64,000 nucleotides of DNA from Escherichia coli. GTDB taxonomy: Bacteria > Pseudomonadota > Gammaproteobacteria > Enterobacterales > Enterobacteriaceae. The position numbers and the translations under genes were made by a program. The notes under the pieces were generated by a model. It was not told the DNA's origin. It searched no databases and saw nothing but the letters and a program-made list of their open reading frames with translations. The stretch is taken from NCBI RefSeq assembly GCF_009931435.1, contig NZ_CP043415.1; one strand, written 5' to 3'. This document shows, in pieces, positions 48,253-64,000 of the stretch. The stretch's first letter is position 1. Every line of letters starts with the position of its first letter.

Positions 48253-49023
48253 TCAGCCCCTGATTTTTGCCAGGGCATCCGCCATGCTGCGGATTTCATC
48301 CCGTGCCTCCAGAACAACCTCCCGCAGAATATCCCGGTCAAACCAGCGACGGGACGGTTCATCCGGTATACGCAGCACATCACAGACCAGACCACTGGCC
48401 AGGATATGCTCCACACACTCACAGACCAGGTACATTTCCACAGAGGAAAAACGTGCGCCACGGTTCAGAATGGCATCGAGCACCACGGGCAGATTTTCGT
48501 CATCTTCATCAAGCCAGCAGGGGTAATCGCTTTCCTTCACAACCAGACGAAAGCGGCGCGTCTGGCGGGTCAGCAACGTCTGACCGGTGGTGGTCAGCGC
48601 CGCCCGGATACGCCGCGCATCGTCTGCCACCTGGTAACAGATGCTTCGTACTGCATTGCGCACCGCATCAAGAACTGCCCTGATTTCGTCTTCGGTCAGC
48701 CATTCACCGGCATACGGAAAAGACACCTGTGTTCCGTCTGCCGGAAGTACCGGCAGCGACTGCCACTGACTGCCGGACAGAACAAGTTCCGCCCCGGTTC
48801 CGGTCAGTTTCTGAATGGCGGAGGCCAGGTGCGGCGGCAGTACGCCATCGTGGCGGTTAACGAGTAACGTCGCCAGCCGGGGCGCATCCAGCCGCACGTA
48901 AATGCTGATCCAGCCCGGATACTTCAGGTTACGCTGGTCAACATCCGTCTCTTCCGGCCAGCCCTGCGCCAGCAGCAGGTCGCGGGCATGACGACAAATC
49001 AGTGCATTCAGCGTTTTATTCAT
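48253..49023 (-). CDS. Hypothetical protein, 256 aa
   Basis: ORF track only; no recognised motif. Confidence 0.6.
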
Positions 49024-49067
49024 GATTCATGGTCTCCCTGAATCGCCGCCCGGAGGCGGCGATAACA

Positions 49068-49535
49068 TCAGTCGTTTTCGTGCGTGTTGTTTTTCAGCAG
49101 GATGCGGGCCTGATTAACCACCGCCTGACGGCGGGTAACGCATTCCGGGACGGCGAGGCCGTAATCACGGGCGGCCCATTCACGCTTCCACAATGCCTGT
49201 TCAGCGGTCTGAATCAGGGACGCCAGCAGTTCAGCAGGGACGGTCACCTGGCGGTTTTCGCTCACGTTGCTGATAATCTCCATCGCCGCGGCGGAAGAAA
49301 TACCGGACTCAATTCGCTGGTCTTCCGGGATGTCCTCCAGGCGCGCCAGGACGGTCCTGATTTCATGATCGGACAGGGAAATATCCATTCCGTCAGCGAG
49401 GGCCTGAATCTCTTCCGGGGACCAGACAACCAGCATCAACGGCGTGTCTCCCGGATACTTTGCTGCCAGCTCCCGGCATAGCGTTTCGCATGTTCCGTAC
49501 ATTCTCGTCTCCTTCTCAATCTTTAAAGCACGCAT
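49068..49535 (-). CDS. Hypothetical protein, 155 aa (paralogue of the 133-aa protein)
   Basis: Shared RQVTVPAELL motif. Confidence 0.6.
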   Translation of the reverse strand: MRALKIEKETRMYGTCETLCRELAAKYPGDTPLMLVVWSPEEIQALADGMDISLSDHEIRTVLARLEDIPEDQRIESGISSAAAMEIISNVSENRQVTVPAELLASLIQTAEQALWKREWAARDYGLAVPECVTRRQAVVNQARILLKNNTHEND

Positions 49536-49737
49536 CCAGTTCCAGAATTTCGGTATATGCCTCCATCAGGAGGCGGTTTGCGCGAAACAACGTCTGACGC
49601 ACCAGACGTTCCGGAAGGGTGTCAGCATTAAAGCTGTACCGCCGCTCCATCTCATTCATGGTTGTACGCAGGTCGCACATGGCATTGGCCACCTCCGCCA
49701 CTTCGGCGCGAAGTTTTTCGTGTCCGGCATAGTGCAT
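49516..49737 (-). CDS. Small hypothetical protein, 73 aa, starts 1 nt after the methyltransferase stop
   Basis: ORF track; compact operon spacing. Confidence 0.45.
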   Translation of the reverse strand: MHYAGHEKLRAEVAEVANAMCDLRTTMNEMERRYSFNADTLPERLVRQTLFRANRLLMEAYTEILELDACFKD

Positions 49738-50421
49738 TTACGCAGCCTCCGGCATAAACCAGTCATCATTCGCGGCCCCCTGCTGCATGGCCCGTTGCAC
49801 GGCGGAAAGGCGTTGCTGCCCGGCACGGTGATACTGCTCAAGCAGCTCGATACCGATATACCGGCGTCCGGACTGGAGGGCGGCGACGCAGGTTGAGCCG
49901 CTGCCTGCAAACGGGTCCAGCACAATTGCGTTCGGGTGTGTGAAGCTCTCAATCAGCGGTTGCAGGCTGGTAACGGGCTTTTCCGTCGGGTGATGGCGAT
50001 TGCCCGAATATTTCCAGCCCAGCACGTCCGGCAGCGGGTTTTGTGGCAGACGTGGACGGCCTTTTGCCAGGATGTAGGCGCATTCGTGGCGATAGCCCAC
50101 ATATGCGGCCTTCGATGTGTAGTTTTTGGTGAAGACCAGGTGACCAACCACGCTGAATCCCGCATTTTTCCAGGCGGCCACAAAGCGATCGACGCGGTTC
50201 CAGCCATAGAAGCTGACCATCAGCGCATCTTTTTTGAGTACGCGGTACATTTCATTACAGGCCGGTTGCAGCCATTCATCGGTTTTATCGCCAGCGATGG
50301 TGCGCCCGGAACGGTCACGGAAACCGACGAGGTACGGCGGGTCGGTGAGGATGAAATCAATGGCGTTATCAGGGATACGGGCTATAACATCGATGCAGTT
50401 ACCGAGGACAAAACGGGACAT
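49738..50421 (-). CDS. Orphan DNA methyltransferase, beta-class N6-adenine/N4-cytosine type
   Basis: 227 aa; DPPY near N-terminus, SAM motif LDPFAGSGSTCVAA near C-terminus; no adjacent endonuclease. Confidence 0.88.
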   Translation of the reverse strand: MSRFVLGNCIDVIARIPDNAIDFILTDPPYLVGFRDRSGRTIAGDKTDEWLQPACNEMYRVLKKDALMVSFYGWNRVDRFVAAWKNAGFSVVGHLVFTKNYTSKAAYVGYRHECAYILAKGRPRLPQNPLPDVLGWKYSGNRHHPTEKPVTSLQPLIESFTHPNAIVLDPFAGSGSTCVAALQSGRRYIGIELLEQYHRAGQQRLSAVQRAMQQGAANDDWFMPEAA

Positions 50422-50804
50422 ACAAAACGCCTTCTCTTACAGAGGGCACCGGGAGGGCACCCCTGTGGTGCCCGTTCCCCGCTGCCTGTGGGCTGTTCAC
50501 CGCGTCCGGTAACGGGTCAGGCCGACCGTGGAATACCGCAGCCGTCGTCTGTTTGACGGCAAGGTTATGCCGCGAAAGCGGCTTGAAGGGCGTTCATCAG
50601 AAAAGGGCGACAGGCTGGCGTACACTGTCACCGACGCCAGCCGGGAGCGGTAAAAGCGCCCGTCCCGTGCCCGCCGGACGCGGGACACTGACCACAGGCA
50701 GCGTTTATGCCGCGCCGCGTCAGCCGGCGCAGTAAAAAGAGGAGCATGGCGACATCCTTTACCGGAAAAGAAACGGGCAGTTGCCCGCCCGTCTCCGTCA
50801 TACT

Positions 50805-51707
50805 TCATCCACCGTAATGCGCCACCTTGTCGACTATCCACGCAGGTCCGGTGACTTCCGGCAGCTCATCGTCATCTGTCGGGGAAGACCATTCCAGTTC
50901 CCCCCACAGCACATCAACAAGCTCTCCACGCTCATATCGCTGCCAGCCACAGAAATTGCAGCCCTGTTCGGCGTACCAGTGCTCCAGCGTGCAGCCGAAA
51001 CGGCGGCTTAATTCTGCAACAACGTCGCTTTCCGGCTGACACCACGGCGTGTCGAAATCCACCTGAATGAAGTTTTCCCCCTGACTGCTGATATTCAGGT
51101 CATACCCACAAGGCCACTTCACGCCATACCGTTCTGTATACCAGTGATATGCAGAAGGAACACCGTTCAGAACACCACCGTTAAAGCCATTCACTTCAAC
51201 ATCCAGGCGGGTCGGCAGAACCGTCAGCAGGTCAAACGGCATGGTTTTTTCCGGCACTACGTTGTCACACAGACGGTTCCACCACACCGATACATCCTCG
51301 TTACCCCAGATGTCACACCAGTCACCTCTTTTTGCGGTGAAATGCACAGTGATGGTTTCCCTGACATCATCCGGTAACCCTTCCCAGCGACGCTGTCCAG
51401 TACCGCTCTGCAGCCAGAGTTCATGCAGCATCAGGCAGTTTTGCTCATCCAGCAGTACACCGTTCTGCAGGTGTGTCAGCCAGCGGGTGAACGCGATATT
51501 TTCCGTCGATACAGCACCACGTCCGGCAGCCGTCACTCCGGGGCACTGCTCAGAGCGGATATTTTCAGTGATCTGCAGAAGTCCGGCACTTCCGGCCAGA
51601 AACAGCTGAATACCTTCATTTGTGGCGCGGCGATAAAACGGTGTGACTGCACCGCTGGCCCGTCGTTTAATCTCAGCAATCTGTGCCGGTTCACCAGAAA
51701 AATGCAT
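50805..51707 (-). CDS. Hypothetical protein, 300 aa; ATG sits at the predicted 3' end of the group II intron
   Basis: ORF track; Trp/Cys-rich; no family assigned. Confidence 0.6.
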   Translation of the reverse strand: MHFSGEPAQIAEIKRRASGAVTPFYRRATNEGIQLFLAGSAGLLQITENIRSEQCPGVTAAGRGAVSTENIAFTRWLTHLQNGVLLDEQNCLMLHELWLQSGTGQRRWEGLPDDVRETITVHFTAKRGDWCDIWGNEDVSVWWNRLCDNVVPEKTMPFDLLTVLPTRLDVEVNGFNGGVLNGVPSAYHWYTERYGVKWPCGYDLNISSQGENFIQVDFDTPWCQPESDVVAELSRRFGCTLEHWYAEQGCNFCGWQRYERGELVDVLWGELEWSSPTDDDELPEVTGPAWIVDKVAHYGG

Positions 51708-54096
51708 ACGATCGGGTAGCAGTGATGCATTACTGCATCACCGCCCCCTAAGAACCGTACGTGCCAGTTTCCCGGCATACGGCTCAAGCCTTTCTAAGCC
51801 CACTCTCATGAGCCGGTTTCACTACATGTATACCTTTCGCATGAACAAGTGTGTGACACATCGGATGCAGCATAATCAAATTGGAGAGGCAGTTGCTCCC
51901 TCCATCGACTCGCCGTATGATGTGATGAACCTGCCACTGGGAATCAGATGTAATCCTCTCATCACATATGGGGCATCGGCCCCGCTGCTCAAACCAGATT
52001 TGAATGAGCTTTTTCCGTCCTTGCAGTTTGTGCCGCATTTTGTCTGCACAACGCTCCTCAAAGTACATCTCCCATTGAGGATCGAACGGATTAGCTGCAA
52101 TTTTAATCGGTTTAAACCGGTTGATAGGCGTATCGATTGCTTTCCTCAGATTTGCATACTGAGGCTTACCGTTGGCAAGGAGTTCTCCGGTAGCCGTGGA
52201 GAAAGACCAGTTTCGGGCACCTTGTTGATGGAAATATCTTTTCCGAATCCACTTCTTTCCCTTATTGGGATGACGCCGAACAGCCCAACGCCATAAAGCC
52301 AGCCAGATCTCATTGTCAACTTTGTTAAATGCGACCTTGGCCACAATGTGTTGATGGTAAGCCGCCCACCCTTTGATCATTGGGTTCAGCATGCGGATCA
52401 ACGTAAGCTGATCCATAGCTTTGTTGCCTTTGATTACAGCGCGTATTTTCTTTAAAAAGGAACTGACATTGGCTTTAGAGGGTTTGATCAGCATCTTACC
52501 GCCATATTTGCGAATGTTCTGTCCAAGAAAATCAAATCCTTCCTCGATATGTGTGATTTTCGTCTTTTCCGGAGAAAGCATTAATCCTCTTTCAGCCATA
52601 AACCGCCTGACGACGGGTAATACCTGAGACTCAAGAAGTTCTTTTGACTCTCCAGTGATAATAAAATCATCAGCATATCTCACATAGTTAACTTTCGGGT
52701 TAACCAATCGTCCCTTGACTGTTCTCTTTTTAAACTCCGAAGCAAGAAGCGCCTCCAGTCCATCCAGAGCAATGTTAGCCAGTACAGGAGAAATTATTCC
52801 CCCCTGAGGAGTTCCTGAATTTACAGGGAATAACTGCCCCTTTTCCCTGTAACCCGCTTTAAGCCACTTTGTCAGGATTTGTCTGTCTGTTGAGGTGTTA
52901 TCGATTAGCCATTGATGAGATATATTGTCAAAGCATCCCCGTATATCCCCCTCAAGCACCCATTCAGCGGATGTTTTCTGCGCAAGAACACAGAAGCACT
53001 GTGCTATCGCATCTGCAGTAGACCTTCCAGTCCGAAAGCCGAAGGATCTCTGGTCAGCAGTGACTTCAGCAACGGGCTCAAGAGCCAGCAAATACAACGC
53101 CTGCATCGCCCGATCCTTCATAGTGGGTATCCCAAGGGGACGAGACTTCCCATTTGACTTAGGTATATAAACCCGCTTAAGTGGCTGTGGTTTGTAACCA
53201 CGCCGTTTCAGCAGGTTAATAGCAAGAAATTTAACCTCCGGGGAAGACCATGTCTGACCATCAACCCCAGGAGTACGTTTCCCGCTATTCTCTGTAACTC
53301 GTCTGACAGCAACTGCTCTGCCACTAAACGAGTGAGTCAGTATCCATTGCAAGGATTTGACCTTGCCATGTTTACCTTCTCGTGTTGCCTTTACGATACG
53401 CGCTTGCAGTCTCCGCACTTCCCGATAGCACTGACGCCAGTTGATACTGTGCCAGGAGTCACCGTTAAGTAAGGACGCACCTTTACAGGTTGTAGCCTGC
53501 TCAGTCATCTGCTTTTCCTTTCTGGAAGATTACTCAAACTCTCTCGTAATGAAAGACCCAGTGGAAGTCTGCCCGCTTTCGCGTAGGGTAATGTTGCCGG
53601 GCTCAACCCTTATCCGGTCCATTACAGACTGGCATTCGCTTTTTCCACCTTCTTTTACCCGCACCGCCAACAGTATCCCTTGCGGTTAACCTGCCTCACG
53701 AGGCAGCGATACGGGCTTACCATGTTCCACCTGAATAACAACAGTAGGTTAGACTCTGCTCACAACACCGGTGGTTTATTGTCCGTGTACCCCTAGCAAA
53801 CAGAGGAGTAACCAACCACATACCTTTTGGTTCAAGCCTGTCAGCATCTTTGGCTTGTTCTGGTTAACGACGCTTCAGCAGTTCACATATGTTAGTCATG
53901 CTACCGAGCCTAGACCTCCTCCGCCTGATGCTGGCAGATTACATGTAACCTCACGGTTTCATGCGATCCGAAGATCCGGTTTCATTGTCCTGACAGCTTC
54001 ACACCCCACCGTTACCAGTGACGCATGTGTCAGTAGGCTACTGATGACGGAACATCAGGTTCCCTGACGGAATCGAACTCCGCTGGAACAATTATT
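51708..54096 (-). mobile_element. Group II intron (3' boundary approximate)
   Basis: 5' end GTGCGAC (complement of 54096-54090); domain V GAGCCGTATGCCGGGAAACTGGCACGTACGGTTC at 51752-51785; internal RT ORF. Confidence 0.8.
51784..53508 (-). CDS. Group II intron-encoded reverse transcriptase/maturase with C-terminal HNH endonuclease
   Basis: 574 aa; YADD motif; maturase region; HH...C..C HNH-like C-terminus. Confidence 0.95.
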   Translation of the reverse strand: MTEQATTCKGASLLNGDSWHSINWRQCYREVRRLQARIVKATREGKHGKVKSLQWILTHSFSGRAVAVRRVTENSGKRTPGVDGQTWSSPEVKFLAINLLKRRGYKPQPLKRVYIPKSNGKSRPLGIPTMKDRAMQALYLLALEPVAEVTADQRSFGFRTGRSTADAIAQCFCVLAQKTSAEWVLEGDIRGCFDNISHQWLIDNTSTDRQILTKWLKAGYREKGQLFPVNSGTPQGGIISPVLANIALDGLEALLASEFKKRTVKGRLVNPKVNYVRYADDFIITGESKELLESQVLPVVRRFMAERGLMLSPEKTKITHIEEGFDFLGQNIRKYGGKMLIKPSKANVSSFLKKIRAVIKGNKAMDQLTLIRMLNPMIKGWAAYHQHIVAKVAFNKVDNEIWLALWRWAVRRHPNKGKKWIRKRYFHQQGARNWSFSTATGELLANGKPQYANLRKAIDTPINRFKPIKIAANPFDPQWEMYFEERCADKMRHKLQGRKKLIQIWFEQRGRCPICDERITSDSQWQVHHIIRRVDGGSNCLSNLIMLHPMCHTLVHAKGIHVVKPAHESGLRKA

Positions 54097-54491
54097 CAGG
54101 CGACTTCATGTCGCACATTTGAGCACCAGTTTGGCATGGGAATTCTCCTCTCACATGCGGCCTCCACCAGGCCGTGCCGCACCTGTAACCGGGCGACCGC
54201 ATACGAATGCAGGTGCGGCCCCGAAGCCGCAGCGCGTGGAGGAGGAACGACGAAACGTGACCGGGTGAGGAGGCCGGCGACAGCGACACACTTGCATCGG
54301 ATGCAGCCCGGTTAACGTGCCGGCACGGCCTGGGTAACCAGGTATTTTGTCCACAGAACCGTGCACAAAATGCTGTGGATAAGCTGGACACAGCCGTCCA
54401 CAGCAGGCATACAGCCACACCCTCAGAGAATTGAGCGTTTTTTAGTCACAATAATGACATTTGACTGTGTGTGGATTCAGTTATTAGAATA

Positions 54492-54507
54492 CTGTATATG
54501 CATACAG
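54492..54507 (+). promoter_or_regulatory. LexA (SOS) box CTGTATATGCATACAG upstream of impC
   Basis: CTGT-N8-ACAG palindrome about 24 bp upstream of the impC ATG. Confidence 0.7.
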
Positions 54508-54530
54508 CAAAAGAAAAGGGAGATGAGAAC

Positions 54531-54779
54531 ATGATCCGCATTGAAATTCTTTTCGACCGCCAGAGCACAAAAAACCTCAAATCAGGCACACTTCAGGCGC
54601 TACAGAATGAAATCGAACGACGTCTGAAACCACACTACCCGGAAATCTGGCTGCGTATAGACCAGGGCAGCGCCCCGTCTGTATCTGTCACAGGAGCCCG
54701 CAACGACAAGGATAAAGAACGTATCCTGTCTCTGCTGGAAGAAATCTGGCAGGACGACAGCTGGCTGCCTGCAGCATGA
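54531..54779 (+). CDS. impC: ImpC (DinI-family); track ORF starts at 54471
   Basis: MIRIEILFDRQS...KDKERILSLLEEIWQDDSWL resembles DinI. Confidence 0.8.
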   Translation: MIRIEILFDRQSTKNLKSGTLQALQNEIERRLKPHYPEIWLRIDQGSAPSVSVTGARNDKDKERILSLLEEIWQDDSWLPAA

Positions 54780-55195
54780 GTACCGTTTATCACCGTCCGG
54801 CTGACCCTTCAGGCAATGACAGTTACGTGCGACCGTTGTTTGCCGATCGTTGCCAGGCCGGTTTTCCTTCGCCTGCCACTGATTATGCTGAGCAGGAACT
54901 GGATCTGAACAGCTATTGCATCAGCAGACCTGCAGCCACCTTCTTTCTGCGCGCCAGCGGTGAATCGATGAACCAGGCTGGCGTGCAGAATGGTGATCTG
55001 CTGGTAGTGGACAGGGCCGAAAAACCACAACACGGGGACATCGTTATCGCTGAGATCGACGGGGAGTTCACCGTCAAACGACTGCTGTTGCGCCCACGCC
55101 CGGCACTGGAGCCGGTTTCAGACAGCCCGGAGTTCCGCACACTGTATCCGGAAAACATCTGTATTTTTGGTGTTGTCACTCACGTTGTTCATTGA
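54776..55195 (+). CDS. impA: ImpA (UmuD-like, S24 LexA-type peptidase)
   Basis: 139 aa; CQAGFPSPATDY, SGESM and K in FTVKRL align to UmuD. Confidence 0.88.
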   Translation: MSTVYHRPADPSGNDSYVRPLFADRCQAGFPSPATDYAEQELDLNSYCISRPAATFFLRASGESMNQAGVQNGDLLVVDRAEKPQHGDIVIAEIDGEFTVKRLLLRPRPALEPVSDSPEFRTLYPENICIFGVVTHVVH

Positions 55196-56152
55196 TTTGC
55201 GGGGGGTGAACCGTTGCATCTCTCCGGAGGTTTTTGGTCATCAGCTCAGGGAACAAGTAAAGAGCTGGACAGGACTCGCCATGGGGGTGGGCATTGCACC
55301 TACAAAAACGCTGGCCAAAAGTGCACAGTGGGCAACAAAGCAATGGCCACAGTTTTCCGGTGTGGTCGCGCTGACGGCAGAAAACCGTAATCGGACCTTC
55401 AAGTTACTGGGGCAGCAGCCTGTTGGTGAAGTCTGGGGAGTAGGACGCAGACTGACGGAAAAGCTGAATGCGCAGGGTATTAACACAGCGCAGCAGCTGG
55501 CGCAGGCTAACACGGCATTCATCCGGAAAAACTTCAGCGTCATTCTTGAGCATACAGTACGCGAACTCAACGGCGAGTCCTGCATATCTCCGGAAGAAGC
55601 CCCACCGGCAAAACAGCAGATTGTCTGTAGCCGCAGTTTTGGTGAACGAATCACAGACAAAGATGCCATGCACCAGGCTGTTGTTCAGTATGCAGAGCGG
55701 GCCGCAGAGAAACTACGTGGGGAGCGTCAGTATTGCCGGCAGGTGGCGACATTTATACGAACGTCACCCTTTGCAGTGAAAGCCCCTGTTACAGCAATTC
55801 CGCTGTGGAAAAGCTTCCATTGCCTACACAGGACAGCCGGGACATTATTGCCGCAGCATGCAGAGCGTTAAACCATGTCTGGCGTGAAGGGTACCGCTAT
55901 ATGAAGGCAGGAGTCATGCTGGCTGATTTCACACCATCGGGTATAGCGCAGCCGGGATTATTTGATGAAATCCAGCCCCATAAAAACAGCGAAAAGTTAA
56001 TGAAAACACTCGATGAACTGAACCAGTCGGGAAAAGGGAAAGTGTGGTTTGCGGGGCGAGGAACCGCCCCTGAATGGCAAATGAAACGGGAAATGTTGAG
56101 TCAGTGTTATACAACTAAATGGCGAGATATTCCCCTGGCCAGGCTGGGTTAG
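55167..56152 (+). pseudogene. impB: impB (UmuC-like) remnant: 5' ~100 codons absent, plus a frameshift near 55780
   Basis: Track ORFs 55167-55871 and 55733-56152 together align to UmuC from about residue 100 onward; no N-terminal catalytic region between impA and this point. Confidence 0.75.
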
Positions 56153-56153
56153 T

Positions 56154-56570
56154 TCAGTCATCTCCGAACATATTTTCAGCGTTTCTTCTGGTCTGGTCTT
56201 CACCGTCATTTCTCGACAGACTCTGCTCTGTAAGAGGAGTACTGCAATCCACAGACGTATGGAGACCAGATTGTTTTTCCAGTAATTCAAGCAATTTCTT
56301 TTCAACCGAAAAAGCACCTGGTATTACGCTGGAAATCACCTTATTAATATCATCCAGAGTCGTATTTTCTGTCAGTAACTCCGATATCAGCAAAGGAAGA
56401 CGTTTATCTATAGCTGCAAACGCCGCACCAGTAACTAACATCGCGCGCATGAAACGTCCCCGCTCCTTCAGTTTTTCATTTGCAATGAGCTCATCTGCTA
56501 TCTTATCTCCTGTCCGTTCATCCGGGAAAAGTTCAAATGAGCAGCGTCTGGATTTATTTTCATCACTCAT
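56154..56570 (-). CDS. parR: ParR/StbB partition adaptor
   Basis: 138 aa directly downstream of parM. Confidence 0.7.
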   Translation of the reverse strand: MSDENKSRRCSFELFPDERTGDKIADELIANEKLKERGRFMRAMLVTGAAFAAIDKRLPLLISELLTENTTLDDINKVISSVIPGAFSVEKKLLELLEKQSGLHTSVDCSTPLTEQSLSRNDGEDQTRRNAENMFGDD

Positions 56571-57543
56571 TAGTCACACCACCTTTCATTTTTATCATTC
56601 CCATGACTAAATCAAACTGCGGGGATGAGCTCAGATAAAAGCGCTCATCAGGAACCTTAGTCAGGTTCTTCACAGCCTCGGCCACAATTTCAGCCCCACC
56701 ACCAACACACATTACATGTGTATAGTCGGTGAAACGGCTGATGACATCATTAACTCGTTTAATAAGCAACTTCTGCCGTTCATTGATAACATTAATGATA
56801 GACTCACGCTGTTCAGCATTATAAATGCGACGGGAAAGGTAGTCAGGTTCATTACGGTGCACAATGATATTGTCAGCCTGGAATGAGCTCACTCTTGTAT
56901 TAGCATGTACAGCCATCTGTTCCTTAACCCCGGATGTAATCAGGGACACGCCGATATTCGGATCACACCAGGTTTTTGTAATCCCTGTCATTTTGCTACG
57001 AACATGCGACACATCAAGAGTTGTACCACCGAGATCTACGATCAAAAGGGATTCATCATCCTCAAGCCCCGCAAGAACACTGAAACCAGCGGGAATACTT
57101 TCAGGAAGAACGGAAACACTGCGAATAACAAATGCATCACTCCCCTGCACCCGTACTTCACGCATCACATTTTTTTTCTTTCTTTCAATGTTTTGCTTAT
57201 TTTTCTGATTGTTGGCGTCAAGGTATTCAGAGATCGGCAATGTGACGATGACATCAATAGGCTGCGCTTTCAGGCCGGTCTGCTGTAGCGCATGCTGAAT
57301 GGCCACAACATTCACATCACTGTACTGATAGCGTGTTTCAGTCGTTACGACAGCATCAGCACTTAATGGATCAAATGAAAACTTCTCGCCGTCGATCTCG
57401 TAATTAGCCGGGGCAGCATCATCCAGTAAACTAAAAGACCATTCCGGTTTAAAGCTGTTAGGGCTGATTAACGTTTTCACGTCACCATCCTCCAACCAGG
57501 CAAGTTTAATGTTGGTAGAACCATCATCAATAAAGATTTTCAT
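56563..57543 (-). CDS. parM: ParM/StbA actin-like segregation ATPase; start MKIFIDDGSTNIKL (track ORF extends to 57612)
   Basis: Strong similarity to R1 ParM as remembered (IDDGSTNIKL, DLGGTTLD, GGGAE motifs). Confidence 0.9.
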   Translation of the reverse strand: MKIFIDDGSTNIKLAWLEDGDVKTLISPNSFKPEWSFSLLDDAAPANYEIDGEKFSFDPLSADAVVTTETRYQYSDVNVVAIQHALQQTGLKAQPIDVIVTLPISEYLDANNQKNKQNIERKKKNVMREVRVQGSDAFVIRSVSVLPESIPAGFSVLAGLEDDESLLIVDLGGTTLDVSHVRSKMTGITKTWCDPNIGVSLITSGVKEQMAVHANTRVSSFQADNIIVHRNEPDYLSRRIYNAEQRESIINVINERQKLLIKRVNDVISRFTDYTHVMCVGGGAEIVAEAVKNLTKVPDERFYLSSSPQFDLVMGMIKMKGGVTNE

Positions 57544-57956
57544 AACCAGTCTCCGTTGCTCATAAACAAATAGAAAAAACAAATATGCTTCATACATGCA
57601 ATGTATATTCAATTATAATGGAAAGATGGTCTTTCTGAAAGGGTACAAGCAACATAAAAACACAATAAACTGCATGTATATCGCACGTACAACCTTAAGA
57701 CCAGAGAAAATCATAGATACAAAAAACATTATGAGTGTTATATGTGATACATAAATGCAATATAAAAATATCTTTGACATCATGGTTCAGGTTAAGGGAA
57801 GGGAATGAAATGGTGAAACTGAGAGGAAAGGAAAGCGGTGACGAATCATGTCACCATATACAGAAAGATGTCTAATGGGGACTCTTTAGGTACACTAAGA
57901 ATCCCCATAACGCATTTAAAAGACACACATTAGATACCCTTAAGGTATCCGATAGC

Positions 57957-58265
57957 TTATTGACCTATTGCGCCATCACGTTCAAGCTTCTCTCTTATAG
58001 CCTCAATAATATATGAGCTAAAATCCAGAGATGTTTTACTGGTCGCTTTAAGTTCCGCATGAGCTTCAAAATACGACAGCGGTATGGCCTTAAGATTCTT
58101 AGCCTTCGTCCTGGCGGCCACGGGACGACCTGAAACTTCCTCTGTACCTTCATTTGGCTGAGACGGGACTGTTGCTGTTACGGCAGAAGAAGAAGTTTGT
58201 AATCTGGCAGAATCCACCAGGTTTTTCAGTTTTTCAGCCTGTGCACTAAATTTCGCTTTGCTCAT
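57957..58265 (-). CDS. Small partition adaptor (ParG-like ribbon-helix-helix), candidate partner of the ParA ATPase
   Basis: 102 aa directly downstream of the ParA-like gene; C-terminal DFSSYIIEAIREKL. Confidence 0.5.
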   Translation of the reverse strand: MSKAKFSAQAEKLKNLVDSARLQTSSSAVTATVPSQPNEGTEEVSGRPVAARTKAKNLKAIPLSYFEAHAELKATSKTSLDFSSYIIEAIREKLERDGAIGQ

Positions 58266-58351
58266 GAGATAACCCAGGATGTTTGTTAGATACTCAAAAG
58301 ATATCCTTTAAAAACCCAAAGAATACTATATGGATACCCAATAGATACACT

Positions 58352-58996
58352 TTACTGTTTGTTATTTTCAATCAGATGATTGATTTCTTCGATCAGGGCA
58401 ATAACTTCCTTACCTCCTGCCGAATAGCGCCCATGAACAGACTCAGTGATTCCCATCCCAGTCTCAATGACATCCTCAAATTCTGCACGAGCAGAAATGC
58501 GGCTCTTCATCAGCTTCAGATGTTTGAACGATGGCAGGATTGCATCAAGCTTAGGGAATTTCTTCTTGTTAGGATTAACTTTACAGAGATACAGGTGAGC
58601 AGTTATATCAGTCCCCATGATAGAGCTGATTTCGTCCAGTACTCCATCAAAATGCATCAAACCAATACGCTCAGTCAGGGAGTCTTTTGAAGGGACAATA
58701 ACGCAGTCTGCAAAGGCAATCGCAGTACGGGTAAGATCTGAGTCAAATCCCCCACAGTCAATAAGTAACGTCTTATCGCTGTTCTTGTAGGGAGTCATAA
58801 TTTCGATTAACTCATCCACTGTTTTGGGTACTTTCACGGAAATTTCTTTTCCTTCAGGTCTCAGCCCCAGAATGATAGAAAGCCCGGTATGAGTATCCAG
58901 ATCAACTGTATCAGACTTCATTTCACCAACAATGTTTACGGATGAAGTTGTCTTACCCACACCACCTTTGGGATGCGTATTAGCAATAACAGGCAT
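58352..58996 (-). CDS. ParA-family (type Ib) partition ATPase; start MPVIANTHPKGGVGKTT (track ORF extends to 59074)
   Basis: Deviant Walker A KGGVGKTT. Confidence 0.85.
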   Translation of the reverse strand: MPVIANTHPKGGVGKTTSSVNIVGEMKSDTVDLDTHTGLSIILGLRPEGKEISVKVPKTVDELIEIMTPYKNSDKTLLIDCGGFDSDLTRTAIAFADCVIVPSKDSLTERIGLMHFDGVLDEISSIMGTDITAHLYLCKVNPNKKKFPKLDAILPSFKHLKLMKSRISARAEFEDVIETGMGITESVHGRYSAGGKEVIALIEEINHLIENNKQ

Positions 58997-59177
58997 AGTG
59001 TATCTCCAGAATCCACATGTAATACCCATAAAGCCCCCCCAAAGACACCTTTCGGATATCCAAGAGGTACTCAATAGATGTTTTTTTTACTCTATACCGG
59101 CCCGGCATGTCAACAGAATATGAAATACCGATAATATATCCATGAGATATCCGAAAGGGATTTAAAAAAGTCAGAGC

Positions 59178-59540
59178 TTAAGGAATTCTTTTGAGCATAG
59201 ACACCGCATCGGACTCAAGCATCGAAAACTGCACCCGGTGCCGTGCAGCCACATCCAGTGCAAATACCTTCGTGTAGACCTCCGTTGAACTGATGGACTT
59301 ATGCCCCATCAGGCTCTGCAGGACCTTCAGCGGTATACCGACATACAGCATGTGCATCGCATAGGAATGGCGGAACGTATGTGGCGTGACCGGGACAGAT
59401 AACGTCACACCGTCAGCGGTAACCGCTTCCCCAATCCAGGCCCTGACCGTTCTGTCCGTCACTTCCCAGATCCGCGCTTTCTCTCTCCTGCCTGTCCGTT
59501 TATTACGCCGTTCCATGGGGATTTTCAGTGTGGCCACCAT
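59178..59540 (-). pseudogene. Tyrosine recombinase (XerC/D-like) C-terminal catalytic fragment
   Basis: HTFRHSYAMHML (HxxR box), LMGHKSISSTEVYTKV (catalytic Tyr); in-frame TAG about 20 codons upstream of the ATG and no intact N-terminal domain. Confidence 0.6.
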
Positions 59541-59941
59541 CGTCTGCAGCTGGCTGACGTACCAAGAGTCGGAGAGCGGAACCAGCCGGTGAGTCTACTG
59601 CCCGGCTGGCGTTCTTCCTGCCGTCCTGGCTGCTTTTTCTGTCCGCTGCTTCAGAGTGACCAGCAGGTATTTTGGCAGTTCATCATGAACCATCGACATA
59701 TCCCTCAGTGAAGAGGAGGCTTATGGATGGTGTCGCTGCGGTAATTTCAGAACGTGCCATCATCCGTCCTGTATAGCGCATCTTCCTGCAGAAGGGTTTC
59801 AGCCGCCGCGGTAATAAATGCTCGTACCGTGCAGATAGCATTCTGCACACTCCCCGAACTGATATACACGGGTTCAAGAGATTCGGTAACTCCATCACGG
59901 TGTACCAGTGCGTTTCGGACCTTGATTACCCTCTCAAGTTC

Positions 59942-60526
59942 CTACAAAGGCCACTCATGCGGTGTTGCCAGCATCGTTGAAAAATACCGATCTATCACTT
60001 TGTGGCTCTGAAACGTTTTCTTCGCCACAAGAGACTGAGCTCGCCAGGTATAAACCTTCTCAGGAGTGGCTGTATCCGGTTCCTGCTCGACCCATTTGGA
60101 AGCACGTAATTTTCTTCTGTCTTCCTTATTAGCAATCAGCGAATCAGCTACCTGCAGAAATCGCTGCAAATGTGGAGGATGATTAAGAAGTGCCCTTGCG
60201 CTGTACATCAGAAAACTGTCCAACACACTCACACAATGAACGTAAGCCATTCGCTCCACAATTCCCGGTTGGTTGAACTGCATCAGGTTCTCTAACTCAA
60301 ACAATTCATCTTTTGCATCCTGCAGACGGTCAGGAATACTGGCAAGCGAAGCCTCAAAATATTGCTGCTCAGCCGCCTCTTCCATCCAGTCCTGAAACCA
60401 GCTGTATTCCTGTGCTGCCGCATCCCATTCAGGAGTTCCTTCCTCAGCATCCGTGTAATTTTCCGCAATCCATTCATCAGTGCGTTCTTCCTGAATTTCA
60501 AACAGCAGTTCTTTCATTTTTCCCAT
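59942..60526 (-). CDS. Hypothetical protein, 194 aa, acidic N-terminus
   Basis: ORF track only. Confidence 0.5.
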   Translation of the reverse strand: MGKMKELLFEIQEERTDEWIAENYTDAEEGTPEWDAAAQEYSWFQDWMEEAAEQQYFEASLASIPDRLQDAKDELFELENLMQFNQPGIVERMAYVHCVSVLDSFLMYSARALLNHPPHLQRFLQVADSLIANKEDRRKLRASKWVEQEPDTATPEKVYTWRAQSLVAKKTFQSHKVIDRYFSTMLATPHEWPL

Positions 60527-60714
60527 TTATACCTCACTGAATCTCCTGAAATCCCGCCTGGCATTTGTCTGTGCTCATTCCAGGATTAGATTTATTCAGT
60601 ATCCATGCTTGGCGTAATGTGATGCGATGTTTTTATCCAGAGGTATACCGCACGAAAGCATGAACCGCCCCGGAAATCCTGGAGACTAAACTCCCTGAGA
60701 AAGAGGTAAACAGG

Positions 60715-61041
60715 ATGACTAAAAATACTCGTTTTTCCCCCGAAGTCCGTCAACGCGCAGTTCGTATGGTTCTGGAAAGTCAGGGCGAATATGACTCACA
60801 GTGGGCGGCAATTTGTTCCATTGCCCCAAAGATTGGCTGTACGCCGGAGACTCTGCGTGTCTGGGTTCGCCAGCATGAGCGGGATACCGGGGGCGGTGAT
60901 GGTGGGCTCACCAGCGCTGAACGTCAGCGTCTGAAAGAGCTGGAACGTGAAAATCGTGAACTGCGCTGCAGTAACGATATCCTTCGCCAGGCTTCCGCTT
61001 ATTTTGCGAAGGCGGAGTTCGACCGCCTCTGGAAAAAATGA
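60715..61041 (+). CDS. IS629 OrfA
   Basis: 108 aa [26 protein letters not shown]... Confidence 0.95.
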
Positions 61042-61928
61042 TGCCACTGCTGGATAAGCTGCGTGAGCAGTACGGGGTCAGACCGGTATGCAGCGAACTG
61101 CATATTGCCCCGTCAACGTATTACCATTGTCAGCAACAGCGACATCATCCGGATAAACGCAGTGCCCGTGCGCAGCACGATGACTGGCTGAAGAAAGAGA
61201 TACAGCGCGTATACGATGAAAATCACCAGGTATACGGTGTGCGTAAAGTCTGGCGTCAGTTGTTACGGGAAGGTATCAGAGTGGCCAGATGCACTGTGGC
61301 ACGTCTCATGGCAGTTATGGGACTTGCCGGTGTTCTCCGGGGTAAAAAGGTCCGCACTACCGTCAGCCGGAAAGCCGTTGCCGCATGCGACCGCGTAAAC
61401 CGTCAGTTCGTGGCAGAACGTCCAGACCAGTTGTGGGTGGCTGATTTTACCTGGGTAAGCACATGGCAGGGCTTCGTTTATGTGGCGTTCATCATTGATG
61501 TGTTCGCCGGATACATCGTGGGATGGCAGGTCTCATCATCCATGGAAACAACATTCGTGCTGGATGCACTGGAGCAGGCGTTGTGGGCCCGTCGGCCGTC
61601 CGGCACAATCCATCACAGTGATAAAGGTTCTCAGTATGTATCGCTGGCCTACACGCAGCGGCTTAAGGAAGCCGGATTACTGGCATCAACAGGGAGTACT
61701 GGCGACTCGTATGACAACGCGATGGCGGAGAGCATCAATGGTCTTTACAAAGCGGAGGTAATACACCGTAAGAGCTGGAAAAACCGGACAGAAGTGGAAC
61801 TGGCCACACTAACGTGGGTGGACTGGTATAACAATCGACGATTGCTGGGAAGGCTGGGCCATACTCCTCCGGCAGAAGCAGAAAAAGCTTATTATGCTTC
61901 CATCGGAAACAATGATCTGGCAGCCTGA
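61038..61928 (+). CDS. IS629 OrfB (DDE transposase catalytic part)
   Basis: 296 aa integrase-core ORF overlapping orfA. Confidence 0.95.
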
Positions 61929-62031
61929 GTTCACAGATAAAACACTCTCCAGGAAACCCGGGGCGGTTCATTCAGTGGTGAACAGTCCATTCCGGAGACG
62001 GAATATCTTGTTAAGGCTGTATATTATACTG

Positions 62032-62073
62032 GCTGTAAACAACATGGCCACCAAGGACCATGTTGTTTACAGC
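62032..62073. other. 16-bp perfect inverted repeat hairpin between IS629 and the iutA stop
   Basis: GCTGTAAACAACATGG ... CCATGTTGTTTACAGC; no adjacent U-run. Confidence 0.4.
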
Positions 62074-62099
62074 ATACCCTTGTTACAAAAGAATCCCCG

Positions 62100-64000
62100 T
62101 CAGAACAGCACTGAGTAGTTCAGACCAAAGGTTCGGCCCCGGCCTTTGTAGTCGTACAGTGAAGCAGGGCCGTAACCCGGGCTGTAGTACAGAGGTGCAC
62201 GCTGTCCCCAGACAGTGGTATAGTCACGGTCGAAGAGGTTCTCAACGCTGAAGCTGAGTGTTCCCACCGGAAGCAGCCAACTACTGATAAAATCGACGGT
62301 AGTGTAACCATTAATATCGTTACCCTCTGCATCGCTTACGTCGAAAGAAGTGGTGCTCTGCACACGCAGACTCCACGGTTCCGGCGCCCAGCTAATGTAA
62401 GCTGTCGCTTTCGATGGACTTGATTCCTTCACGTCATATTTTTGCCATTGACCGTTCACTTTCGACTCGGTTTTCAGCACATTGAAGTTCACACCGGTAC
62501 TCCAGTCAGTATCCGGGATCAGGTAGTCCACCGCACCTTCCACGCCGTAAATACGGCGCCTGTCGTCCTTCACACTGATGGTCAGATCTTTATTCCTTTC
62601 CACGCTCTTATTGGAAAGCGAGTAATATGCTGCGATTTGAGTCCGCAGGTTGTCACCGGTAAAGCGCCAGCCCAGTTCATAAGAATCGACTTTCACGCCT
62701 TCCAGCTTACTGTCGCTGACGTTCACGCTCTTTGTCAGGGGAAGATGGCCGTTCACTGCTGCACCATAGATGCCGCGACCATAATATTTCCCCGGATCCG
62801 GCAATGCCACCCCCTGGGAAAAATTGAACCATGCCTGCTGACGTTCGGTGATGTGCATCAGCAGACCAGCATTGAACAGAAAGTTATCGTAATCTACCGA
62901 ACCACCAGGAATGGCGTCGGCAGATATCGCCTTCCCGGCAGCAATCTTCTGTTGCTGCATGTAGTCGATAAAATCATCTACCCTGTTCTCAGTATACTGA
63001 TAGCGTACGCCACCGCTGACGGTAAAAATATCATTAATGTCATAGCTGGATTGCAGGAAGGCCGCCAGATTGGTGATGTCATATGACGGATAGCGCCCGG
63101 TGGTGTAAATCTTATGGTTGTTCAGCCCTCCGGAAGCACTTGCCTGAGCCAGATCGAAGAACATCTGGTTGGAGGTAAAGCGCTCATGCTCAGCATCCAG
63201 CCCCCAGGTGATTTGCCAGCCGTCCATCAGTTGGCTGTTCAGAGTCAGTTTCATGCCGTACTGGTCGGTATCCTGCTGTGACGAGGAGAAAGCCGTCGCC
63301 TGTTTATTCGCATTTACCGTCGGGAACGGGTAGAACCGCAACGACTCATCGCGGTAGTAAACCTGACCGACCAGTTCCTGTCTCAGGAAATCACTGTCAG
63401 AGTACTGCAGGCTGATCAAATGCCGCTCAGTGCCGGGAATGCGGTCAGAATTCAGCCCCTTACTGACGTATGGTGTGCTGCTCCCGCTGATGGCGGAAAA
63501 GCCTTTCCCGAGATTAAGCCCGTAATTGTCGTCCCCCTGACTTTTATAGTACTGCGTTATCAGTTGAAGCTGCCGGGATTCATCGATGTTCAGCGTACCG
63601 GTTCCCATGATGTCCAGCCGATTGGAGTGCTGCAGGCCGGTCTGGGTGTTATCAAGCAGGGTAGCATCGCCGTTACCGTCAAACCAGCCGCCAAATTTCT
63701 GATATGCCACGGAAAGACGTCCGGAGATATGGTCATTTCCGCCGGAGACAGCACCGGCAATGCGCTCATCGTGATCTTTACTGCTGTTAAAGCCACTTTT
63801 TGTGCCAGCCTCAAACTCCATCATGGTTTCCGGCTGGCCTTTTTTGGTCACGATGTTTATCAACCCTCCGGTACTCCCGCCACCGTACAGGGCCGTCGCG
63901 CCGGAGATCACTTCAATATGGTCGATATTAAAAGGATCGACAGAGTCCAGTTGTCGGCTGTCGGAACGTGAAGAGTTGAGGCGCACACCGTCAATCAGGA
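62100..64000 (-). CDS. iutA: IutA aerobactin TonB-dependent receptor, 3' portion (N-terminus beyond window end)
   Basis: Matches IutA over more than 600 aa as remembered; C-terminus ...RTFGLNYSVLF. Confidence 0.93.
   Translation of the reverse strand, partial: LIDGVRLNSSRSDSRQLDSVDPFNIDHIEVISGATALYGGGSTGGLINIVTKKGQPETMMEFEAGTKSGFNSSKDHDERIAGAVSGGNDHISGRLSVAYQKFGGWFDGNGDATLLDNTQTGLQHSNRLDIMGTGTLNIDESRQLQLITQYYKSQGDDNYGLNLGKGFSAISGSSTPYVSKGLNSDRIPGTERHLISLQYSDSDFLRQELVGQVYYRDESLRFYPFPTVNANKQATAFSSSQQDTDQYGMKLTLNSQLMDGWQITWGLDAEHERFTSNQMFFDLAQASASGGLNNHKIYTTGRYPSYDITNLAAFLQSSYDINDIFTVSGGVRYQYTENRVDDFIDYMQQQKIAAGKAISADAIPGGSVDYDNFLFNAGLLMHITERQQAWFNFSQGVALPDPGKYYGRGIYGAAVNGHLPLTKSVNVSDSKLEGVKVDSYELGWRFTGDNLRTQIAAYYSLSNKSVERNKDLTISVKDDRRRIYGVEGAVDYLIPDTDWSTGVNFNVLKTESKVNGQWQKYDVKESSPSKATAYISWAPEPWSLRVQSTTSFDVSDAEGNDINGYTTVDFISSWLLPVGTLSFSVENLFDRDYTTVWGQRAPLYYSPGYGPASLYDYKGRGRTFGLNYSVLF

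Follow-up and report, generated by a model that had tools for sequence, protein, structure and literature searches.

Here we describe an impCAB (umuDC-like) SOS mutagenesis operon that occupies positions 54461-56152 of the window (the whole 64,000-nucleotide, or 64-kb, stretch of Escherichia coli DNA analysed). The plasmid is IncF (FIA/FIB/FIC), and the operon is located at the far end of its leading region. The window comprises an F-type tra operon, oriT, a leading region (psiB, ssb and anti-restriction genes), then impCAB and then a parM/stbB partition locus. The features of the operon, in window positions, are the following:

54461-54490, + strand: impCAB promoter, sigma-70-like (-35 TTGACT, 18-nt spacer, -10 TAGAAT)
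54463-54482, - strand: secondary, weaker LexA box, AACTGAATCCACACACAGTC, overlapping the -35 region
54490-54509, + strand: primary LexA (SOS) box, TACTGTATATGCATACAGCA, abutting the -10 element directly after the promoter
54531-54779, + strand: impC, complete open reading frame (ORF), 82 amino acids, DinI-like
54776-55195, + strand: impA, UmuD-like S24 self-cleaving protein, 139 amino acids (145 in the intact form)
55185-55186, + strand: junction of a 334-bp deletion
55186-55786, + strand: impB remnant A, codons 103 (partial) to 303 (end of the palm, thumb/HhH and first half of the little finger)
55783-55786, + strand: contraction of a C run from C5 to C4, giving a -1 frameshift at codon 303/304
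55787-56152, + strand: impB remnant B, codons 304-424 and the TAG stop (second half of the little finger and C-terminal DUF4113)

The control region is preserved. The promoter scores 10 of 12 against the consensus in our scan and is kept in intact operons, as judged by alignment. The primary LexA box has one match in the window, with 0 expected by chance, and differs by one base from its counterpart in the impCAB operon of pTF2; the same base is polymorphic among intact operons. The secondary box matches the pTF2 site exactly. The two pTF2 boxes have heterology indices of 1.60 (the primary box, experimentally SOS-responsive) and 13.49 (the secondary box), and in a constitutive-SOS strain ImpC is up 21-fold and ImpA 9-fold (PMC12211044). 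A reading made beforehand from the sequence alone (hereafter the sequence-only reading) had reported an intact LexA box; it is indeed present, together with the second box. An Rfam scan found no RNA element within impCAB, its only matches being to the neighbouring group II intron.

The first gene, impC, is also intact, as the same reading had proposed. Its product matches the Pfam DinI family (PF06183) at 3.6e-18, carries a single amino-acid difference (R/Q) from the IncI alleles and is labelled 'DinI-like family protein' by PGAP. ImpA is identical to the intact form through Val137, after which residues 138-145 (IHRTRELR) are replaced by VH. The Pfam Peptidase_S24 match spans residues 20-134 (profile positions 1-115 of 116) and scores 85.4 bits, against 85.2 bits for the intact protein, and ImpA aligns to UmuD residues 6-135 (of 139) at 4.9e-36. 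In that alignment, Ala28-Gly29, Ser64 (in GESM) and Lys101 (in FTVKRL) read opposite UmuD Cys24-Gly25, Ser60 and position 97. The altered C terminus falls outside the conserved S24 domain model. The earlier description of impA as intact thus holds for the peptidase core, which is unchanged, and fails for the last 8 residues, which are swapped for 2. A literature search on the effects of UmuD C-terminal truncation returned nothing usable. Since the control region and both ORFs are intact, ImpC and the C-terminally altered ImpA are probably still made after SOS induction.

The change in ImpA and the main lesion in impB arise from the same event. We aligned the operon with those of two IncI plasmids (L003 and L001), a plasmid from a human STEC isolate (L011), an Escherichia albertii plasmid (L007) and the nearest undeleted relative (L016). 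The alignments to intact or undeleted operons display one clean gap of 334 bp at 55185|55186, together with the loss of 1 bp from the C run. The gap runs from the third position of impA codon 137 through the first position of impB codon 103, the intact sequence around its ends being ...CACGT|GATACAC...GATGAAA|TGTTCA... Lost with it are the end of impA, the TGATG in which its stop overlaps the impB start, and the first 102 codons of impB with one further nucleotide. The sequence-only reading had estimated that about the first 100 codons of impB were missing and had linked the slightly short ImpA to a deletion across the impA-impB junction, and both statements agree with the alignments. The two edges of the deletion share no microhomology; an apparent 2-bp 'TG' match was dismissed after base-by-base comparison.

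The missing codons are the catalytic part of the polymerase, again as first proposed. They hold all three aligned catalytic carboxylates (Asp6, Asp101 and Glu102 of the SIDE motif) as well as the Tyr11 position, and Asp6 and the S-I-D-E residues of ImpB align with the conserved D and the SIDE/WDE motifs of solved DNA polymerase IV chains. In Y-family polymerases, catalysis depends on metal binding by the residues equivalent to Asp6, Asp101 and Glu102. In agreement with this, the Pfam IMS domain (PF00817) is matched in the remnant at profile positions 99-146 of 148 only (26.5 bits), which is the last third of the catalytic domain, whereas intact ImpB matches positions 2-146 (133 bits, 8e-39).

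What is left of impB is divided between two frames, remnant B being out of frame with remnant A. The contraction, defined relative to L016, L003 and L011, places the frameshift that had been noticed near 55780, and tblastn with intact ImpB recovers the switch directly: residues 103-303 align in frame 3 (55185-55787; 95% identity, E=0) and residues 301-424 in frame 2 (55778-56149; 97.6% identity, E=0). The IMS_C domain is split accordingly, with positions 1-55 of 109 in the ORF at 55167-55871 and positions 59-107 in the ORF at 55733-56152. The second ORF also carries DUF4113, the UmuC-type C-terminal extension (1.4e-20), joined to no catalytic domain. A complete, translationally coupled UmuC-like polymerase gene is absent here: the TGATG overlap and codons 1-102 are gone, the rest is frameshifted, and the remnant has no start codon with a ribosome-binding site.

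At least 14 PLSDB plasmids carry the same deletion, as does pUTAK-5-1, whose remnant also contains ISEc23, and a search of 5,426 complete E. coli genomes gave at least 6 records with it. Deletion alleles were counted with a 1461-bp query, by span and number of pieces; an 80-bp junction query was discarded as a count, since intact operons also match it, their two 40-bp halves being merged into one place, which makes it non-diagnostic. Full coverage of the locus is seen in 2231 PLSDB and about 1,620 RefSeq records, and among those listed (the best 60 of 2231 in PLSDB and the best 40 of about 1,620 in RefSeq) the records without the deletion have the undeleted length. Because only these top-ranked records were listed, the deletion counts are minima. 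The deletion plasmids come mainly from cattle, veal, yak and dairy cow, and the impC and impA core is open in all 15 of them. PGAP annotates the identical sequence in NZ_CP065971.1 (I6I15_RS25750) as umuC, 'frameshifted; incomplete; partial in the middle of a contig; missing N-terminus'. The impB gene here is an ordinary, already annotated pseudogene in a well-known operon, and a literature search for published impB pseudogenes gave nothing usable. The broader notion that large, presumably F-type plasmids generally carry a decayed impB was rejected, four 119-136 kb STEC/bovine plasmids (not replicon-typed) having an intact, unflagged umuC/impB.

The plasmid itself can be placed with some precision. 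Positions 48400-62300 of the window align without a mismatch to NZ_CP065971.1 (E. coli FDAARGOS_1058 plasmid unnamed3), an FDA-ARGOS reference-grade assembly typed as IncFIA/FIB/FIC, conjugative and 128 kb. The part of this reference plasmid outside the window includes cnf2, cdtABC-III and aerobactin genes, by which it is classed as pVir-like. The closest complete plasmid (L018 766-15798 and L019 1-7822) bears cnf2, cdtABC type III, an hlyC/hlyA remnant and the aerobactin cluster, and the iutA end of that cluster extends into the window (about 62100-64000). Given these virulence genes and the iutA end, the source of the window is most likely a pVir-type plasmid of necrotoxigenic, cattle-associated E. 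coli.

Two mobile elements lie in the neighbouring leading region. An IS100-type element (IS21 family) at 38830-40779, with istA at 38916-39938 and istB at 39935-40717, splits a large ParB/Spo0J-like gene on the - strand into ORF halves at 38045-38863 and 40727-42022. This insertion is missing from the otherwise near-identical FDAARGOS_1058 plasmid, whose IS100 copy sits elsewhere. A 2.4-kb group II intron occupies 51711-54116 on the - strand (Rfam RF02012 at 53913-54059 and RF00029 at 51711-51787; reverse transcriptase/maturase ORF of 574 amino acids at 51784-53508). It sits in sense orientation after codon 7 of a DUF1281 (yfaB-like) gene, the likely true start of which is the ATG at 54137-54135 with AGGAG upstream, and splicing (AAT|GTGCG...GAT|CGT) would bring back the DUF1281 reading frame. 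PGAP places the DUF1281 start later, so that the intron looks intergenic. It is not found in the relatives L005 and L006.

We then placed the allele among its relatives using a distance matrix of impB codons 104-414. The nearest is L016 (pRHB38-C13_2, an IncFIA/FIB plasmid from pig faeces), with 5 differences, followed by L006 and L007 with 23-26; the intact alleles of IncI and other large E. coli plasmids stand at 31-35 differences. L016 keeps the 334 bp, has Glu102Lys (GAT AAA) and a -1 frameshift of its own in impB, and is truncated by IS66 and IS481 at its two ends; the IS66 removed impC and half of impA. L007, from E. albertii, has the same Glu102Lys together with a stop at impA Tyr17, and L006 has a stop at impB Trp155. 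Within the deletion lineage, L005 has an additional 13-bp deletion and L004 (CP063740.1) is without the 1-bp frameshift, having an IncI-like patch at the position corresponding to window 55778-55867. This patch, of about 90 bp, shows the IncI-type base at all 7 variable positions, which suggests a short recombination (gene-conversion) tract inside the pseudogene.

The Glu102Lys allele is present in 10 plasmids (7 from E. albertii of wild birds and 3 from pig E. coli), and full-length impB ORFs with SIDK instead of SIDE lie at 3514-4788 in L007 and at about 1991-3223 in L016. Judged by the residue it alters, the allele likely encodes a catalytically dead polymerase that preceded further decay. 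As the nearest undeleted relatives already carry it, impB may have been dead before the deletion; on a four-allele tree, presence and absence of Glu102Lys in the deletion progenitor are equally parsimonious. The Glu102Lys, Trp155 stop, impA Tyr17 stop and IS insertions among these close relatives indicate that the operon is decaying in this clade.

The remnant itself is little eroded. Compared with seven other alleles, it has 13 window-specific substitutions, 8 synonymous and 5 non-synonymous, a ratio that differs from the roughly 1:3 expected under long neutral drift. Pairwise pN/pS in the remnant is 0.2-0.35 and likewise bears no sign of such drift; the counts in impC and impA are too small for dN/dS. 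Most substitutions of the window allele are common to the undeleted L016 and so predate the deletion, which makes the decay recent. Three of the 5 non-synonymous changes are Leu-to-Gln replacements by the same T-to-A transversion (CTG to CAG) at 55414, 55474 and 55492, within 80 bp; that at 55474 is common to L016, and those at 55414 and 55492 arose after the split.

Taken together, we consider it highly probable (roughly 0.93) that the locus is a decayed copy of a plasmid-borne impCAB operon on an F-type (IncFIA/FIB/FIC, pVir-like) conjugative plasmid, with impB as a pseudogene. The remnant is 95-98% identical at the protein level to ImpB 103-424, and its disabling lesions are common to at least 15 plasmids. 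The 334-bp deletion took away the ribosome-coupled start of impB and its first 102 codons, and a later 1-bp slippage in the C run divided what remained between two frames. The lesion is one step of a lineage-wide decay, in which descendants of the deletion have gained the 13-bp deletion or ISEc23. With the N-terminal catalytic region lost and the rest frameshifted, the sequence itself shows that no ImpA'2-ImpB translesion polymerase can be made, and neither UV protection nor SOS mutagenesis dependent on imp is expected from the plasmid. ImpC and ImpA, left without their partner polymerase, are most likely leftovers not yet mutated.

Two alternatives would restore a polymerase, and we regard both as having next to no chance of being correct. 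A sequencing or assembly artefact hiding an intact gene would be in keeping with the position of the 1-bp lesion in a homopolymer, a typical context for long-read errors, but the identical 334-bp deletion recurs in at least 15 plasmids from differing laboratories, countries and hosts. The C4 run is present in every deletion record that was checked base by base (the window, L002/FDAARGOS_1058, L005 and L017) except the L004 type, other records are 100% identical over the region, and the match to the FDA-ARGOS assembly described above is without a mismatch. A split or relocated gene, whose N-terminal catalytic domain lies elsewhere so that the polymerase is rebuilt in trans or by recombination, has nothing found in its favour and is contradicted by our searches: neither ImpB 1-110 (tblastn) nor the deleted 334 bp (blastn) matched the 64-kb window above chance level, in any frame, and tblastn of the 128-kb reference plasmid recovered no other ImpB-like sequence. 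The finding that the sequence-only reading had named as able to overturn it, an N-terminal polymerase domain in another frame or location, was thus not made in either sequence. The remnant, moreover, is frameshifted and lacks a translation start.

The remaining alternatives leave impB as a pseudogene and concern why it was lost and what was kept. Loss of impB may have been adaptive, a mutagenic and potentially toxic polymerase being selected against, with a lower plasmid cost and the rest of the operon left behind; this would differ from decay without selection in evolutionary cause alone, the present role of the locus being the same. Such loss could have been favoured because cloned impCAB, when induced, severely impairs the growth of E. 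coli, and selection acts against transposon insertions that drive the operon (PMC10286972). Several independent impB lesions within a small clade (Glu102Lys, the Trp155 stop, the 334-bp deletion, two -1 frameshifts and IS insertion) point the same way, as does an impB 3' fossil of separate origin, fixed in about one quarter of the plasmids that match (IncF where checked). However, lesions after the first are neutral, so their number is no proof of selection, and impA and impC are also hit in L007 and L016. Most plasmids with full coverage keep the full-length form (14 deletions among the best 60 of 2231 PLSDB records), including the four 119-136 kb STEC/bovine plasmids, and impB is under purifying selection in I-complex plasmids (dN/dS about 0.11; PMC10286972). 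Intact operons being still the norm and impB being constrained in the I-complex, neutral decay remains the simplest reading, and we hold adaptive loss to be possible but doubtful. It is quite improbable, in our view, that impC and the truncated impA are kept as useful without the polymerase, for example as an SOS-inducible modulator of RecA/LexA on entering a new cell, with ImpC regulating RecA in the manner of DinI and ImpA acting as a checkpoint or partner protein like UmuD. All 15 deletion-bearing plasmids keep the promoter, LexA boxes, impC and impA S24 core perfectly, the operon lies in the leading region beside psiB, ssb and anti-restriction genes, and impC and impA of the I-complex are more constrained than impB (median dN/dS 0.001 versus 0.11; PMC10286972). 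Yet all 15 plasmids descend from a single deletion event and have few base differences, which deprives this preservation of statistical weight. Sister lineages lose these genes too, through the impA stop in L007 and the IS66 removal of impC and half of impA in L016, and deletion of impA, impB, impC or impCAB in pTF2 brought no significant change in SOS expression levels or conjugation frequency (PMC12211044). No sign that the pair has its own function emerged from the analysis. Very improbable also is the related idea that impC and the shortened impA have been selected as a polymerase-free module tuning RecA/LexA signalling or host polymerase choice in recipients; were it true, an operon for mutagenesis would, in cattle-associated plasmids of the pVir type, have become purely an SOS modulator through the loss of impB.

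For practical purposes, the decay of impB means that the imp locus here is not to be scored as a functional error-prone polymerase, for example in work on mutagenesis or SOS-linked resistance evolution; the case has little importance beyond correct annotation. The small clade of related alleles shows, as a natural series, how the operon decays step by step on IncF plasmids (Glu102Lys, the Trp155 stop, the 334-bp and 13-bp deletions, frameshifts and IS insertions), and this series could be a marker for tracing cattle-associated pVir-like plasmids.

The operon can be compared with several known systems. An impCAB operon is known from the IncI1 plasmid TP110 (Lodwick, Owen & Strike 1990, as cited in PMC12211044) and from other I-complex plasmids, where it has been studied in pMS7163B and pTF2. 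The window operon shares with these the gene order impC-impA-impB, the promoter and the LexA boxes, and is about 97-98% identical in nucleotide sequence over the shared parts, but it is without 334 bp, carries a -1 frameshift and sits on an IncF rather than an IncI backbone. Chromosomal umuDC of E. coli (DNA polymerase V) is likewise LexA-repressed, with UmuD resembling ImpA and with the Y-family IMS, IMS_C and DUF4113 architecture of ImpB. It differs in having no dinI-like first gene, and the UmuC-like partner in the window is a pseudogene. RefSeq NZ_CP065971.1 (I6I15_RS25750) and 5 other complete E. coli genomes carry a sequence identical to the window allele, and relative to FDAARGOS_1058 the window plasmid has an extra IS100 copy in its leading region.

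A second truncated impB is found on ColV-type IncF plasmids (for example NZ_CP027357.1) as a 3' fossil. It resembles the window allele in being non-functional and is about 96% identical over window 55628-56316, but it stems from an independent event: in NZ_CP027357.1 impB is reduced to its last ~525 bp, and neither impC nor impA adjoins it. There (L008 4001-4679) the fossil is bounded by an IS1 terminal repeat and unrelated DNA. By even-step sampling from the 3,832 locus-matching plasmids, roughly a quarter have this ~690-bp fossil (the impB 3' end and the stbB-side start) as their sole match. This independent truncation is far more widespread than that of the window. Some Shigella strains carry imp deletions. 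The impCAB operon of the Shigella flexneri virulence plasmid is reported to raise survival and induced mutagenesis after UV (Runyen-Janecky, Hong & Payne 1999, as cited in PMC12211044). It resembles the operon described here in that a large, F-like virulence plasmid carries it; it differs in being functional, whereas the window operon is left without a polymerase.
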